This document shows, one piece after another, positions 48,338 through 55,337 of a stretch of DNA of 64,000 bases (position 1 is its first letter; each line of letters starts with the position of its first letter). The notes under the pieces are model-generated. The model was not told the DNA's origin, ran no database searches, and saw nothing but the letters and a program-made list of their open reading frames with translations. The position numbers and the translations under genes were made by a program. The DNA comes from a phage. The DNA is taken from sequence record PZ534511.1; one strand, given 5' to 3'.

Positions 48338-48414
48338 TGGTCTCCACGGAGTGATTCGAACACTCGACCTCCTGATCCCAAATCAGGCGCTCTACCAAGC
48401 TGAGCTACGCGGAG
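48338..48414 (-). tRNA. tRNA-Pro (anticodon UGG)
   Basis: Manual fold: acceptor CUCCGCG/CGUGGAG, D-arm GCUC/GAGC, anticodon loop UUUGGGA, T-loop UUCGAAU, CCA encoded. Confidence 0.8.
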
Positions 48415-48425
48415 TATTTATTATT

Positions 48426-48500
48426 TGGTGGCCCTGGGTGGAATTGAACCACCGTCTGGCGATTATGAGTCGCTTGCTTGAACCTTCCAGCTACAGGGCC
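48426..48500 (-). tRNA. tRNA-Met or tRNA-Ile2 (anticodon CAU)
   Basis: Acceptor GGCCCUG/CAGGGCC, anticodon loop CUCAUAA, T-arm GGUGG-UUCAAUU-CCACC, CCA encoded; G1-C72 suggests elongator type. Confidence 0.75.
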
Positions 48501-48501
48501 A

Positions 48502-48577
48502 TGGTGCTGATAGCAGGACTCGAACCTGCAACCTATTGATTACAAATCAATTGCACTACCAATTGTGCTACATCAGC
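48502..48577 (-). tRNA. tRNA-Thr (anticodon UGU)
   Basis: Acceptor GCUGAUG/UAUCAGC, anticodon stem-loop AUUGA-UUUGUAA-UCAAU, T-loop UUCGAGU, CCA encoded. Confidence 0.8.
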
Positions 48578-48582
48578 AAAAA

Positions 48583-48681
48583 GGTGCTAGGTGATGGAAT
48601 CGAACCACCTATGTATTCAACGACTACCTCGTCTATTTTCAGGATTAAAAATCCTCGCCCTTGCCAAAGGGCTTACCTAGC
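48583..48681 (-). tRNA. atypical tRNA-like gene (about 99 nt; identity unresolved, CCA not encoded)
   Basis: Perfect 7-bp acceptor (GCUAGGU/ACCUAGC), D-arm GCCC/GGGC, T-arm GGUGG-UUCGAUU-CCAUC, but about 47 nt between D- and T-arms containing AGGAUU-UUU-AAUCCU hairpin and a second GACGA-GGUAG-UCGUU hairpin. Confidence 0.45.
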
Positions 48682-48779
48682 TCAGTATGTTGACCATGTT
48701 GCTAGTCGGCGATGACGACTGTAACATTTGATAATCCGGTTCTGCTTCCGGCTTTCGCTTAATTACAAGGTCAACAATA

Positions 48780-48870
48780 TGGCTGAGGGTAATGGAATCG
48801 AACCATCATCGAGTCATCCTCAACGGGACGGTTTTCAAGACCGCTTGAGCACCATTGCTCCCTACCCTCA
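48780..48870 (-). tRNA. tRNA-Ser (anticodon UGA), type II
   Basis: Anticodon stem-loop GCGGU-CUUGAAA-ACCGU, long variable arm (UUGAG-GAUGA-CUCGA), T-loop UUCGAUU, discriminator G, CCA encoded. Confidence 0.75.
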
Positions 48871-48984
48871 TTTATAAACAATACTGATAATGACACTGAT
48901 TTTCGAGCAGTTAGTGACTAGTATAAACGACGATAAATATCAATGCCATTATCTGTATGATTTATGCATTTAAAAATGTAAATT

Positions 48985-49071
48985 TGGTGGGGAGTGGTGG
49001 AGTCGAACCACCCGAGTCGCAATGACAATAGATTTACAGTCTACACCGCTACCTCTACGGGATAACTCCCC
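48985..49071 (-). tRNA. tRNA-Tyr (anticodon GUA), type II
   Basis: Acceptor GGGGAGU/ACUCCCC, anticodon loop CUGUAAA, long variable arm, T-loop UUCGACU, CCA encoded. Confidence 0.8.
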
Positions 49072-49075
49072 AATT

Positions 49076-49150
49076 TGGCACCCCGTACTGGACTCGAACC
49101 AGTGTCAACGGCTTAGAAGGCCGCTGCTTTATCCACTAAGCTAACAGGGC
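49076..49150 (-). tRNA. tRNA-Arg (anticodon UCU)
   Basis: Anticodon stem-loop GCGGC-CUUCUAA-GCCGU, T-arm ACUGG-UUCGAGU-CCAGU, acceptor with two G-U pairs, CCA encoded. Confidence 0.7.
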
Positions 49151-49208: not shown

Positions 49209-49237
49209 ATATTACACTGTTAAGCAAAGTTTGTCAA
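49209..49237 (-). promoter_or_regulatory. sigma70-like promoter driving tRNA cluster
   Basis: On minus strand TTGACA (plus 49232-49237), 17-nt spacer, TAATAT (plus 49209-49214); about 55 nt upstream of tRNA-Arg. Confidence 0.55.
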
Positions 49238-52084: not shown

Positions 52085-52639
52085 TTACTCCCCGCTGTCA
52101 ATAGCAAAACTCATTGCAATACGGTATGCCTCTTCTAATGGTAAGAGTCTCCCCCACACATCCCAACCGACATCAAACTGTCTGCCAAACAACTGTTGTG
52201 TGGTTCCGTGAGCATGACCGAACAGTTGGACTGATCCGTGAGGCTTTCTGTTCCACTTTGCAAACTGGTAATGGCTCATACAGATCAAATTCTTGTTGTG
52301 GCGAAGCTCGTAATAATCTACAACCTCATGACCGAACTCTTTCATAATTCTGACAGTCGTCCTTGTGTCATGGTTGCCACGAACAAGAATAATATGTCCG
52401 TTCAACATATTTAGAATATCTGGAAGTAAGTTGTTGATATTCTTATCATTAGTGCACGCAATATCTCCCAAGTGGAACACAGTGTCTGCAGGTGACACAA
52501 CAGAGTTCCATTCGGCGATGATTCCCGCATTCATACTGTCAAGATTGTGATCATACTGAGATCTGTGTTTTTGACATGAATCAAACTCCATGACCCGCTG
52601 GTGGAGAAAGTGTGTGTCGCTTGTTACAAAGTATTTCAT
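52085..52639 (-). CDS. calcineurin-like metallophosphoesterase (Ser/Thr phosphatase or 2',3'-phosphoesterase type)
   Basis: Motifs DTHF (D-x-H), HLGDIACTND (GD), VRGNHD (GNHD), GHAHG; start trimmed to ATG 52637-52639 with GAGGA RBS. Confidence 0.7.
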   Translation of the reverse strand: MKYFVTSDTHFLHQRVMEFDSCQKHRSQYDHNLDSMNAGIIAEWNSVVSPADTVFHLGDIACTNDKNINNLLPDILNMLNGHIILVRGNHDTRTTVRIMKEFGHEVVDYYELRHNKNLICMSHYQFAKWNRKPHGSVQLFGHAHGTTQQLFGRQFDVGWDVWGRLLPLEEAYRIAMSFAIDSGE

Positions 52640-52646
52640 ACATTCC

Positions 52647-53184
52647 TCATTTAAGTTTAATGCAGTTTTTAAGCTGGCGTTCCATACGATCCACAACCTT
52701 GTCTGGAACATCATGAATGCTTTTATTGCCGTGGCGGTTTTCAACCACGATCACGGTATAACTATACCCATGACTGATTGCCATGTCAACATATTCCTGC
52801 ACATGTTTTTCTTTTGTAAACGTATTACTTACCACGATACGGTCGTATCCCATACGCATCATATCTTCTACGTTATCTTTCGGTATAACTATACCCATGA
52901 CTGATTGCCATGTCAACATATTCCTGCACATGTTTTTCTTTTGTAAACGTATTACTTACCACGATACGGTCGTATCCCATACGCATCATATCTTCTACGT
53001 TATCTTTGCACCATTTCGCTGCGAGTGTTACTTTACTTGCATCCCAGTTGTAATTGCCGTCATCGTCATACCAGAACATGTCGTTCTCAAAATGTGGATA
53101 CAGACCCTCTAAAGATAGCGCATTTGCCAGTGTTGATTTGCCAGACCCTGGTAGACCACGCACGATATATAGCATTTTAGACAT
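52647..53184 (-). pseudogene. P-loop polynucleotide-kinase-like gene (T4 Pnk kinase-domain-like) disrupted by 127-bp tandem duplication
   Basis: Walker A GLPGSGKST after ATG 53182-53184 (GGAGG RBS); reading frame breaks at duplication junction, producing two overlapping ORFs (52873..53241 and 52647..52931) that both encode KDNVEDMMRMGYDRIVVSNTFTKEKHVQEYVDMAISHGYSYT. Confidence 0.6.
52754..53007. repeat. perfect tandem direct duplication, 2 x 127 bp
   Basis: 52754-52880 is identical to 52881-53007 (cggtataactatacccatgactgattgccatg...tcttctacgttatcttt), checked base by base; unit length not divisible by 3. Confidence 0.9.
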
Positions 53185-53212
53185 AGTGACCCTCCGTTTT
53201 AATTTCAACGAT

Positions 53213-53241
53213 AGTATACCTAACTGTTTTGTTAATTTCAA
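53213..53241 (-). promoter_or_regulatory. sigma70-like promoter for kinase/phosphoesterase genes
   Basis: Minus strand TTGAAA (plus 53236-53241), 17-nt spacer, TATACT (plus 53213-53218). Confidence 0.4.
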
Positions 53242-53274: not shown

Positions 53275-53302
53275 GACTGACAAAATGACAAATGAGGAAC
53301 GT

Positions 53303-54220
53303 ATGATGAAGTATTTTAATGCAGACGACCTAGTTGACAAAGGTCTTGTAACCAGTAGGTATTACCCAGATCTGGGGTTAAAGATCTATAAATATGCTAG
53401 AAAAGTATTTTACAACAATTTATGGTATTTGTCCCCTCGTTTACTGGAGTGCCGAGGCATTGTTGTAGGTAATGAAGGAAATGTTGTGGCATGGCCCTTC
53501 ACAAAAGTGTTTAACTTGGGAGAAAACTCCACCAACCTGCCTGACAATAAGCTTGTGACTGCGGTAGAGAAAAAGAACGGATTCCTTGGTGTGGTATCAT
53601 CTCATAAAGGTGACCTATTGTTCTCAACAACCGGGTCTCTTGATTCTCCATATTGTAACCTTGCAAAGGAAACCATCCAAGAGCAATGTGGTAATTTAGA
53701 TCTTATCAAGAAGGTTATGGGCAATGAAAACATGACATTCATGTTTGAAATTTGTCACCCTTCAGATCCGCATATTGTTCAAGAAGACCATGGCGCATAT
53801 TTGATAGGTTGCAGATATAATGATTCTGGAATAATGCTACCAGAAGCAGCTTTAGATGGGATTGCCAAATACCTTGGTGCAAAACGTCCTCTCACTGTGC
53901 GTGAAATCCCGTTCAGCTATGCAAAAGAATTAGCCGCAGAAACAAGGGGCGAAGGGTATATGATCCGTAAGCCTTACTACCCTTATGACCTGCAGCTGAA
54001 GATCAAGTCTCCATACTATTTGGCACGGAAGGCCGTAATGAGGGGTAAAGCTTGGAAGATTTGGGATGATGATATCTTTAAACGTATTGACGAAGAGTTT
54101 TACGGCATGGTAAACTTCATTCGTAGCAATTACACAGAAGATGTGTGGAACTGCCTCCTGGAGCAGGAACGCCGTGAGATACTTGATTGCTATTTTCACA
54201 ACGAGGACTATATGCAATGA
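53303..54220 (+). CDS. RNA ligase, T4 Rnl1 (RnlA)-like
   Basis: Recalled alignment to T4 Rnl1: LLECRGIVV ~ ALECRGIMF, TKVFNLGEN ~ EKFFNLNEN, nucleotidyltransferase motif I EKKNGF ~ TKEDGS; start set at ATG after GAGGA RBS (track start 53285). Confidence 0.7.
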   Translation: MMKYFNADDLVDKGLVTSRYYPDLGLKIYKYARKVFYNNLWYLSPRLLECRGIVVGNEGNVVAWPFTKVFNLGENSTNLPDNKLVTAVEKKNGFLGVVSSHKGDLLFSTTGSLDSPYCNLAKETIQEQCGNLDLIKKVMGNENMTFMFEICHPSDPHIVQEDHGAYLIGCRYNDSGIMLPEAALDGIAKYLGAKRPLTVREIPFSYAKELAAETRGEGYMIRKPYYPYDLQLKIKSPYYLARKAVMRGKAWKIWDDDIFKRIDEEFYGMVNFIRSNYTEDVWNCLLEQERREILDCYFHNEDYMQ

Positions 54221-54567
54221 AGAAGTTGATTGTGTGGCTGGATGACTTGAGAGATCCGTCAAATTACGGAATCCAAAATGCTCTTTGGCTGAAGAACTCT
54301 TCTGAGTTCATGGATTTTATTAACGATAATAGAAAGCTCTACAGGCGCGTTTCTGAGTGGCATTTTGACAGCGATTTAGGAGAAGTCTTAGAAGGGTACG
54401 ACTGTTTCTGCATGTTAGAGGAAAAATTTGTATTTGGTAAGCCTCCTGTAGTTGACAACGTGAAGATTTTCGTGCACACTTCTAATCCATCAGCGGCTCG
54501 TAAATTCATGCTTGCAGCTGACTCGTTTAAAAAGTTTGGAATAGAGATTAAACAAAACATCTACTGA
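54217..54567 (+). CDS. hypothetical protein (116 aa)
   Basis: ATGA overlap with RNA ligase stop; MKKLIVWLDDLRDPSNYG; no motif assigned. Confidence 0.4.
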   Translation: MKKLIVWLDDLRDPSNYGIQNALWLKNSSEFMDFINDNRKLYRRVSEWHFDSDLGEVLEGYDCFCMLEEKFVFGKPPVVDNVKIFVHTSNPSAARKFMLAADSFKKFGIEIKQNIY

Positions 54568-54575
54568 GGACACTT

Positions 54576-55337
54576 ATGCGACGACTGATTATTATCTCCG
54601 GTGCTGGTTTGAGCGCTGAATCTGGTATTCCCACTTTCCGATCTGGTAGCACTGCAATGTGGGAGAATTTCAGCATCGATGAGGTGTGCAACATCCACAC
54701 CTTTGCCAAGAACTACTATAAGGTGCATGACTTTTACAATGCACGCCGTGTAGCTCTGGGCAGTGTTGATCCTAACCTTGCGCATCTCCGGATCGCTGAG
54801 TGGTATTCCCGCTGGCCTGGCCGTGTGATCAATCTTACCACCAATGTAGATGATTTGCTGGAGCGTGCTGGTGTAAAACATGAAGATATTCTACATGTCC
54901 ACGGGTATTTGCCAGAAATAGTCTATGAGGACGATGAAGGAAGTAACGTCATTAAGGACATTGGATACTCTGAGGTAGATCCAGGAAAGTATATCTGGGT
55001 TAAGCCTAATGTGGTGTTCTTCGGAGAAGTAGCTCCGAAGTATACAGACATGTACGACCTGTTGACTTCCCTTACGAGTAATGATATGGTTATCCTTGTA
55101 GGGTGTTCCAACACAGTTATCAATTTTAACTGGGAGCTATTCCCTGCCTGCAATAAGGGAACCAAACTGCTGATCGTTAACAAATACGACTCACAGCATC
55201 TAGAGGAGAATGGCATTTCACGTAGTGATATTTACCAGTACGAGGATCGCGGCATCCCAGTTTGGTTTAACGGGGCGGTTGACGCTTTCTCTGATAAAAC
55301 ATTCATTGAGACCGTAGAAAACTTTATGGAACTTTAA
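54576..55337 (+). CDS. SIR2-family (sirtuin-like) NAD-dependent protein
   Basis: Sirtuin signature GAGLSAESGIPTFRS, PNLAHLRIAEW, TTNVDDLLERAG, catalytic-type HG in LHVHGYL; no obvious Cys4 zinc ribbon. Confidence 0.7.
   Translation: MRRLIIISGAGLSAESGIPTFRSGSTAMWENFSIDEVCNIHTFAKNYYKVHDFYNARRVALGSVDPNLAHLRIAEWYSRWPGRVINLTTNVDDLLERAGVKHEDILHVHGYLPEIVYEDDEGSNVIKDIGYSEVDPGKYIWVKPNVVFFGEVAPKYTDMYDLLTSLTSNDMVILVGCSNTVINFNWELFPACNKGTKLLIVNKYDSQHLEENGISRSDIYQYEDRGIPVWFNGAVDAFSDKTFIETVENFMEL

Follow-up and report, generated by a model that had tools for sequence, protein, structure and literature searches.

We analysed a window of 64,000 nucleotides (nt) of phage DNA (sequence record PZ534511.1) containing a tRNA-like gene, here called X, that lies inside a cluster of six ordinary tRNA genes (Table 1; position p of the RNA corresponds to window coordinate 48682 - p). 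The 901 base pairs (bp) around X were 100% identical to the rV5-like phages APECc02 and CM1 (Vequintavirus). ARAGORN reported a gene with exactly the ends of X and read a four-base 'anticodon', atcc, from an alternative stem consisting of A:U pairs only. In Rfam the tRNA family RF00005 matched at 48585-48681 with 35.5 bits (gathering score 29), in an alignment that inserts 26 nt into the variable region, lacks one pair of the anticodon stem and reads the anticodon as UUU; besides this marginal match no Rfam family was found at X. Neither program folded X into a normal type II tRNA whose anticodon was unambiguous, the outcome that the original prediction, made from the sequence of the window, had named as evidence against an atypical gene. 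The minimum-free-energy fold of X (-34.2 kcal/mol, with none of 200 shuffles equally good) consisted of the acceptor stem GCUAGGU/ACCUAGC, a D hairpin GCCCUU-UGGC-AAGGGC, the hairpins AGGAUU-UUU-AAUCCU and GACGA-GGUAG-UCGUU, and the T-arm GGUGG-UUCGAUU-CCAUC. The perfect 7-bp acceptor stem, D-arm and canonical T-arm described earlier were thus all seen in the fold, together with a first hairpin readable as a 4-bp stem with a UUUUUAA loop and a UUU triplet, and a second hairpin. The interval between the D-arm and the T-arm, previously put at about 47 nt, measured 47 nt (positions 26-72). As had also been noticed, X differs from its six neighbours (tRNA-Pro, Met, Thr, Ser, Tyr and Arg) in its 3' end: all six encode CCA, whereas X ends in A73-CC followed by UUUUU. 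Among these neighbours, the CAU tRNA is assigned to Met by ARAGORN and to tRNA-Ile (codon ATA) in records of the BASEL collection.

Table 1. Position of X, its parts and neighbouring features in the window.
Feature	Position	Strand	Remarks
Gene X, tRNA-like RNA, 99 nt	48583..48681	minus	ARAGORN tRNA-???; Rfam tRNA 35.5 bits; fold z = -3.66; model R1 105.7 bits
Acceptor stem, 5' strand GCUAGGU	48675..48681	minus	Partner ACCUAGC at 48586-48592
A8 A9	48673-48674	minus	Stand 5' of the D-arm
D-arm GCCC-UUUGGCAA-GGGC	48657..48672	minus	Alternative: 6 bp and UGGC tetraloop
'Anticodon' arm, 4-bp stem AGGA/UCCU, loop UUUUUAA	48641..48655	minus	Between invariant G26 (48656) and G42 (48640)
Linker 1, GAAAAUA	48634..48640	minus	Single-stranded, conserved; G-(A/U)-AAA invariant or nearly so in 30 sequences
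Extra hairpin GACGA-GGUAG-UCGUU	48619..48633	minus	Short form particular to rV5 and Av-05 lineages
Linker 2, GAAUACAUA	48610..48618	minus	Single-stranded, conserved; AUAC invariant in 30/30 sequences
T-arm GGUGG-UUCGAUU-CCAUC	48593..48609	minus	Canonical T-loop; 2/5 stem pairs covary
3' tail: discriminator A73, CC, UUUUU up to first base of tRNA-Thr	48578..48585	minus	CCA not encoded
tRNA cluster in transcription order: Arg(UCU), Tyr(GUA), Ser(UGA), X, Thr(UGU), Met/Ile2(CAU), Pro(UGG)	48338..49150	minus	ARAGORN, Rfam
Candidate cluster promoter, sigma-70-like, TTGACA-17-TAATAT, upstream of tRNA-Arg	49209..49237	minus	Consensus scan 10/12; pattern match only
Metallophosphoesterase	52085-52744	minus	Pfam PF12850; RNA healing/sealing set
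P-loop kinase	52873-53241	minus	Pfam PF13671; RNA healing/sealing set
T4 Rnl1-family RNA ligase	53285-54220	plus	Pfam PF09511; RNA healing/sealing set
Cyclic-phosphate processing (receiver-domain) protein	54187-54567	plus	Pfam PF20274; RNA healing/sealing set

X was found to belong to a discrete family of RNAs of about 100-110 nt, seen only in virulent enterobacterial phages, that occur in one copy per genome and always within a tRNA cluster. BLAST and exact-pattern scans detected homologues in over 100 rV5-like genomes, almost all of them with the very sequence of the window, in the other Vequintavirinae genera Avunavirus, Seunavirus, Mydovirus and Henunavirus, and on viral and metagenome contigs, and none in the 185,579 bacterial and archaeal genomes scanned. 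A covariance model (R1) built from 26 variants of X scored family members at 80-117 bits, as compared to at most 27.4 bits for ordinary tRNAs. With this model unannotated members were discovered in phi92-like phages (Justusliebigvirus, subfamily Stephanstirmvirinae, 31 records), where X is divergent (79.7 bits in EmilieFrey, L056 46359-46467, directly after tRNA-Leu(UAA)), has the second linker AAAUACGAAA and the tail UUCA, and bears in all records either no annotation or the label 'hypothetical protein'. R1 also identified a copy of Henunavirus type (108.5 bits) in the N4-like Salmonella phage vB_SenP_UTK0002 (Schitoviridae; L058 1501-1608), in that phage's own tRNA cluster. Being the sole such record found, this copy looks like a recent horizontal transfer. 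The members in phi92-like and N4-like phages therefore show that X has moved horizontally between unrelated phage families, and always into a tRNA cluster. It lies 2-6 nt from the adjacent tRNA, before tRNA-Thr in rV5 and after tRNA-Thr, Ile or Leu elsewhere. The matches L016, L018, L020 and L022-L024, obtained with a looser DNA pattern, and L049 were rejected as chance matches without a tRNA-like context.

One phage has lost most of X. In V18 (L052 456-545) a deletion that begins where the variable arm of tRNA-Tyr starts has fused the 5' portion of this tRNA to the last 42 nt of X, so that tRNA-Ser and most of X are gone and a chimeric tRNA-like gene has been formed; the phage is viable. Where X is present its database labels are inconsistent, and include tRNA-OTHER, tRNA-???(atcc), tRNA-Lys, tRNA-TERM, tRNA-Pseudo, 'hypothetical protein' and no label at all. 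The rV5 genome paper lists only six tRNAs, and X was described neither in the literature that we searched on tRNA-like, pseudo or tRNA-Lys genes of rV5 and the Vequintavirinae nor in the RNA family libraries searched. Additionally, about 18 unannotated GenBank records (MG0656xx; 'Campylobacter phage' C12, C14, C15, A141 and others) were 98-100% identical to rV5-like coliphages across the X region. Mislabelling of the host as Campylobacter, or contamination of the samples, is the probable reason.

Selection on the structure was assessed in an alignment (A5) of 30 distinct X sequences with 20 pairs and 600 pair cells, and the counts of loops, stems and tails were taken from 27 variants. Standard pairing was found in 99.8% of the pair cells, and both sides had changed in 12 of the 20 pairs. 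When the partners were slid by 1-3 columns as a control, only 33-47% of the cells paired; a MAFFT alignment agreed with these results. All seven acceptor pairs formed in every one of the 30 homologues, with both-side changes at five of them, and covariation was also seen in three of the four D-stem pairs. The anticodon stem had 4 bp in all 27 variants, its inner pair taking four forms (AU, UA, CG and GC). In the extra hairpin, A53:U59 was replaced by G:C in Avunavirus; outside the rV5 and Av-05 lineages the extra arm is longer and has at least two further forms, with covariation within each of them, and one class carries the conserved loop GAAYUAAYAGUAC. The AUAC of the second linker was kept also in the phi92-type member, which had been found by the covariance model and not by the DNA pattern. 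The only tertiary pair tested, between G19 of the D-loop and C56 of the T-loop, was G:C in 22 sequences, U:A in eight and broken in none. Since this pair switches and is never broken, the elbow is under selection as well as the cloverleaf.

The D-arm/T-loop types (GACC, GCGG or GCCC stem; C56 or A56), the loop types (CCAUCCAG or CAUCAAA) and the extra-arm classes occur in mosaic combinations, which suggest recombination inside the X gene between co-infecting phages. A kissing pair between the anticodon-like loop and the extra-arm loop (UCCA:UGGA, or GCCA:UGGC in one variant) was rejected, as 4-bp matches arose in about 35-50% of loop shuffles and were absent from most classes. The conserved linker was also considered for a trans antisense target, and its complement CCTATGTATTC was found in the window only at X. 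A comparison of X without its insert to 181 phage tRNAs did not reveal descent from a neighbouring isotype, as the global alignments were weak and inconsistent (Thr, Gln, Gly, Cys and Arg).

Among the options listed in the original prediction was a pseudo-tRNA. A tRNA gene disrupted by an insertion and now decaying would account for the lack of CCA in the window, for the ambiguous calls of the tRNA finders and for the one GenBank record named 'tRNA-Pseudo'. This is scarcely credible for a family in which 12 pairs covary across 30 sequences from several phage subfamilies. Moreover, X of rV5 and X of Av-05 are about 93% identical with compensatory differences, whereas their flanks cannot be aligned and their neighbour genes differ. 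Because of the pairing, the covariation and the conservation of X amid such flanks we regard a pseudogene as excluded; purifying selection and compensatory substitutions contradict that part of the prediction, and the conserved, covarying family supports its option of a tRNA-like RNA. We conclude that X is a real gene kept by selection, whose RNA looks like an L-shaped tRNA but has an oversized extra arm.

X keeps several canonical features, namely a 7-bp acceptor stem and a 5-bp T-stem with all pairs in 30/30 sequences, the T-loop UUCGAUU or UUAGAUU, and the docking pair 19:56 between the D-loop and the T-loop. Other near-universal features are replaced in a fixed way. A8, U14, U15 and A48 are invariant in the core, as compared to U8, A14 and R15:Y48 in standard tRNAs, and U14-U16 of the D-loop is invariant in the family. 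Only one nucleotide separates the D stem from the anticodon stem, with no equivalent of tRNA position 26, and the anticodon stem is bracketed by an invariant G on either side and has 4 bp instead of the canonical five. Loop length ranges from 6 to 8 nt, and most lineages have A at position 33, although the window loop UUUUUAA does have U33 and A37. At 31 nt in the window and as many as 42 nt in other members, the variable region exceeds that of class I (4-5 nt) and class II tRNAs (about 10-24 nt). Its hairpin, which is exchangeable, stands between two linkers, the first with an invariant G-(A/U)-AAA and the second with an invariant AUAC. We take as directly established the existence and structure of the family, the selection on cloverleaf, elbow and linkers, and these non-canonical features.

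The anticodon-like loop changes between lineages. It is UUUUUAA in the rV5 genus, UUUAUAA in its sister genus Avunavirus, CCAUCCAG with the variants CCUUCCAG, CCCUCCAG and CCAGCCAG in Seunavirus and Mydovirus, and CAUCAAA, UAUCAAA or AAUCAAG in Henunavirus, phi92 and N4-like phages. The discriminator is A73 in the rV5 genus only, varies in Avunavirus with drift to U or C, and is U73 in most other lineages. ARAGORN and Rfam did not recognise the forms outside the rV5 genus as tRNA, and six of the sequences (L002, L004, L006, L030, L032 and L040) went unreported at the gathering threshold of RF00005. In the other genera that bear X, the genomes also encode 17-24 ordinary tRNAs, among them Gly(UCC), Lys(UUU) and Lys(CUU). 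Because of the fixed departures, the lack of tRNA-finder calls and the presence of ordinary Gly and Lys tRNAs, decoding is very unlikely to be the conserved function of the family.

In the rV5 genus the resemblance of X to tRNA-Lys is real. Of the 11 nucleotides at positions 30-40 of its anticodon arm (GAUUUUUAAUC), 10 agree with E. coli tRNA-Lys(UUU) (GACUUUUAAUC), whose sequence we confirmed in 5,426 genomes, and this form of X combines the regular 7-nt loop U-U-UUU-A-A, with U33 and A37, with A73. The UUU anticodon and the discriminator A73 constitute the identity of LysRS. X of this genus could accordingly be a working tRNA-Lys(UUU) with an oversized variable arm, charged by LysRS and acting as a resistant or repairable replacement for host tRNA-Lys destroyed by anticodon nucleases; this is the main alternative to the reading that we prefer, although we consider it rather unlikely. 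Besides loop and discriminator, the canonical T-loop and elbow, the absence of another tRNA-Lys gene from the rV5 cluster, the label tRNA-Lys in some GenBank records and the Rnl1-type ligase and kinase genes nearby argue for such a role, and coliphages with tRNA-Lys(UUU) have been found to encode RNA ligases as well (PMC10264068). It is difficult to reconcile, however, with a stack of D-arm and anticodon arm that is one layer short of any canonical tRNA (4 bp and a G-G mismatch, with no position 26), with A8/U14 and the 31-nt variable region, or with an unencoded CCA next to six tRNAs that encode it. The sister genus, furthermore, has UAU and a drifting discriminator, the family as a whole cannot decode Lys, and V18 does without X.

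The original prediction had linked a Lys-like loop to PrrC-type anticodon nucleases and to the RNA-repair genes of the phage. tRNA-Lys(UUU) is indeed the PrrC substrate, but the link came out weaker than predicted. For the rV5 form the match to tRNA-Lys and the RNA-repair genes at 3.4-6 kb speak in its favour; it did not extend to the family, whose function cannot rest on a Lys anticodon because UUUUUAA and A73 are confined to the rV5 genus. The connection of rV5 X to tRNA-Lys-directed nucleases is nevertheless a live lead from the sequence. AriB of the PARIS system, which also cuts tRNA-Lys(UUU), recognises U36-A-A-U39-C40|A41 and U16, and the resistant tRNA-Lys of phage T5 carries U39A, A41C and U16C, of which the change to C41 strongly lowers AriB cleavage (PMC12409363). 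As compared to this published site, X keeps the string U36-A-A-U39-C40 and the D-loop U-U before G18G19, but with C41. This is the profile expected of an RNA that is bound yet poorly cut, and we treat such a relation between rV5 X and AriB as a lead. In the same cluster, tRNA-Thr(UGU) (48502-48577) contains the exact AriB site U36AAUC|A41, and the CAU tRNA (48426-48500) contains UAAUCG.

The 3' end of X differs between lineages. U73-CCA is encoded in 19 of 27 variants, all outside the rV5 lineage, and the end has drifted to ACCU, ACAU, UACA, CACA or UUCA in the rV5, Avunavirus and phi92 lineages, where a mature CCA would therefore need to be added after transcription. T4 tRNAs without an encoded CCA receive it in this way. 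X also has what RNase P and the CCA-adding enzyme recognise in a tRNA, namely a perfect acceptor stem, a canonical T-loop and the elbow. We infer that X is transcribed and processed like a tRNA. It would be transcribed together with the tRNA cluster, cut by RNase P at its 5' end as the neighbouring tRNAs are, and trimmed at its 3' end, and in the rV5 genus the host CCA-adding enzyme would complete the tail.

A role confined to the transcript was also considered, in which X would act in cis only, as a structural part of the tRNA operon: it could provide entry or spacing for RNase P or RNase E, stabilise the transcript or terminate it in part. X always lies in tRNA clusters near a tRNA, and in the window the T-arm and acceptor followed by UUUUU gave a terminator-like score. 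Its position and neighbours differ between genera, however, and the U-run is particular to rV5. A spacer or processing role would also leave the elbow pair, the invariant linkers and the covarying extra arm unexplained, and we find it quite improbable.

Alternatively, X may be a tRNA mimic that acts outside defence, either as an aminoacyl carrier for a non-ribosomal reaction or as a regulator or sink of a tRNA-binding enzyme (a synthetase, a modification enzyme, RNase P, or RelA through mimicry of uncharged tRNA). Most lineages keep U73-CCA, G1:C72 and C2:G71, and many also have C35-C36 (UCC or GCC). U73, G1:C72, C2:G71, C35 and C36 are five of the six identity elements of E. coli GlyRS, and A33 and the odd loop sizes would hold a charged X off the ribosome. 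G3:C70 is absent, however, and CCA and the discriminator are not kept in the rV5, Avunavirus and phi92-type lineages, so that this possibility seems to us unlikely. Two phi92-like open reading frames annotated as 'putative aminoacyl-tRNA synthetase' were rejected as a cognate phage synthetase, as they had no Pfam match and no homologue in the window.

A complete set of RNA healing and sealing genes lies 3.4-6 kb from X (Table 1), and the GenBank annotation of a close relative agrees on these genes. Directly downstream of the Rnl1-type ligase, the cyclic-phosphate-processing protein and a SIR2-family protein (54187-55337, plus strand) extend the RNA-repair set. Together with the conserved linkers that flank a variable hairpin, these genes would fit an intron-like interrupted tRNA, in which the 31-nt insert is excised at the A-rich linkers and the halves are rejoined by the phage kinase, phosphoesterase and Rnl1 ligase, which would yield a normal-sized tRNA. 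No candidate endonuclease for the excision is known, though, and removal of the insert would leave the 4-bp anticodon stem, A8/U14 and A33 in place. The ligase family is also much broader than X, and we know of no precedent in bacteria or phages for an intron-like phage tRNA spliced in this manner; we hold this explanation to be highly improbable. A specific co-occurrence of X and the RNA ligase was rejected as well, as the Rnl1-type ligase was found in 765 phage records from many groups, far beyond those with X.

The reading that we prefer, tentatively and at somewhat less than even confidence, is that X is a non-decoding tRNA mimic, matured like a tRNA, that engages tRNA-binding proteins and most plausibly serves as a decoy for host tRNA-directed nucleases or toxins. 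X would occupy proteins that recognise the tRNA body, with no codon being read. As to the class of target, we infer that host tRNA-directed defence nucleases or toxins are the most likely, with X acting as a decoy or as a poorly cleaved competitor. The anticodon-like loop and the extra arm would be fast-changing specificity modules, and the rV5-genus loop would imitate E. coli tRNA-Lys(UUU), the substrate of PrrC and PARIS AriB. X is accessory and mobile, being lost in V18, present in N4-like and phi92-like phages and mosaic, which fits the tendency of counter-defence genes.

Several observations weigh against this proposal. No nuclease has been tied to the phage group carrying X, and most loops in the family (CCAUCCAG, CAUCAAA) match no known nuclease target exactly. 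With an intact AriB site in its tRNA-Thr(UGU), the cluster shows no obvious design to escape PARIS. Real decoding is possible in the rV5 genus because of the canonical 7-nt loop, U33, UUU, A37 and A73, and the dispensability of X in V18 fits a minor or host-specific role of any kind equally well. The breadth of the ligase family noted above points in the same direction. A more far-reaching form of the decoy proposal is that X represents the first RNA-only anti-defence module on a tRNA scaffold, a horizontally traded decoy whose loop and extra arm set the nuclease or toxin to be titrated, with the rV5 version tuned to the tRNA-Lys(UUU) cutters PrrC and PARIS AriB. This we put forward as a speculation with a limited chance of being correct.

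The spacers around X may also be structured. The 98-nt spacer between tRNA-Ser and X (48682-48779, minus strand) adopts a closed multi-hairpin fold (-25.8 kcal/mol, z = -2.6), and its closing stem covaries among rV5-like variants, with GUUGACCUUG/CAUGGUCAAC in the window and GUGGAUCAUG/CAUGAUUCGC in L041; this spacer is a candidate for a second structured RNA of the cluster. A conserved spacer about 180 nt long lies after X in the genera Seunavirus, Mydovirus and Avunavirus (L003 705-895; L001 700-880; L051 about 540-600). It starts with AGUGCAUUAGCUCAG and contains a tRNA-like D-arm motif and a CUGAUCA loop, and in Av-05 its ends pair perfectly (AUAGUGUAU/AUACACUAU); it gave no Rfam match and no ARAGORN call. 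Av-05 has additionally a second atypical tRNA-like sequence (L001 898-980) with a UCU loop and an extended variable region, which scored 29.6 bits with the tRNA-Sec model and was not called by ARAGORN. The related contigs L031 and L035 carry a normal tRNA gene at the corresponding place.

The tRNA clusters of phages have come to be regarded as counter-measures to tRNA-cleaving immunity, with attention so far confined to ordinary tRNAs. X breaks several near-universal rules of tRNA in a fixed way and with covariation support, and it is carried by hundreds of sequenced phages that are used in therapy and typing (rV5, PVP-SE1-like and phi92-like). It merits a family model, which would end its annotation as tRNA-Lys or suppressor tRNA.

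Of the known systems, class II tRNAs (Leu, Ser and Tyr) share with X the 7-bp acceptor, the 5-bp T-stem, the canonical T-loop, the G18/G19 elbow, an extra helix and the location in a tRNA operon. Their arm has 10-24 nt, whereas the variable region of X has 31-42 nt with conserved single-stranded linkers of 7-9 nt on both sides. X also differs from them in its 4-bp anticodon stem, the missing position 26, A8/U14, the mostly A33, the 6-8-nt loops and an anticodon that is not conserved, and only the rV5 form passes the gathering score of RF00005. tRNA-Sec (RF01852) resembles X in its long variable arm and in a possible 6-bp D-stem with a 4-nt loop, and the loop of E. coli tRNA-Sec, CUUCAAA, is one base from the CAUCAAA of Henunavirus, phi92 and N4-like X. 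With the Av-05 and Seunavirus forms no Rfam model scored higher than RF01852. Membership was rejected nevertheless, as the scores were 27.5-29.4 bits against a gathering score of 47, the stems are 7+5 and not 8+5, the discriminator is U or A and not G, position 33 is A, and the UCA triplet occurs only in some lineages.

The tRNA-like domains of YrlA/Y-RNA and of tmRNA have an acceptor, T-arm and D-loop elbow that are recognised by tRNA enzymes without decoding, as is proposed for X. The ends of YrlA form a Ro-binding stem, and tmRNA has no anticodon arm and carries an open reading frame, which distinguishes both from X; at X neither an Rfam match to these RNAs nor an ARAGORN tmRNA was found. 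Counter-defence by phage tRNAs is known from T5, whose tRNA-Lys(UUU) acts against PARIS AriB and whose tRNA-Tyr acts against retron Ec78 (PMC12409363, PMC11555353, PMC10264068). These are similar to X in lying in a phage tRNA cluster; the loop of rV5 X reads as the anticodon of a known nuclease target, and rV5 X has C41 in place of A41, as does the resistant T5 tRNA-Lys. The T5 genes, however, encode regular tRNAs that function fully and carry a few point changes; the body of X is non-canonical, and the forms outside the rV5 genus lack the anticodon arm of a target tRNA.

The RNAs C and D of T4 (species 1 and 2) are, like X, small non-tRNA RNAs encoded in a phage tRNA cluster; they are stable, as is predicted for X, and their role is still unknown (PMC3014915, PMC9697503). 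RNA C has a tRNA-like T-arm and paired ends as in X, but with 139 and 119 nt the two RNAs lack the cloverleaf and the linkers of X. A relationship was rejected, as R1 matched only tRNA-Thr and tRNA-Leu of T4 (about 24-26 bits; L050) and nothing at rnaC or rnaD. X shows, as do RNAs C and D, that phage tRNA operons carry non-tRNA passengers, and unlike theirs its anatomy gives clear and testable hypotheses on processing, charging and nuclease binding.

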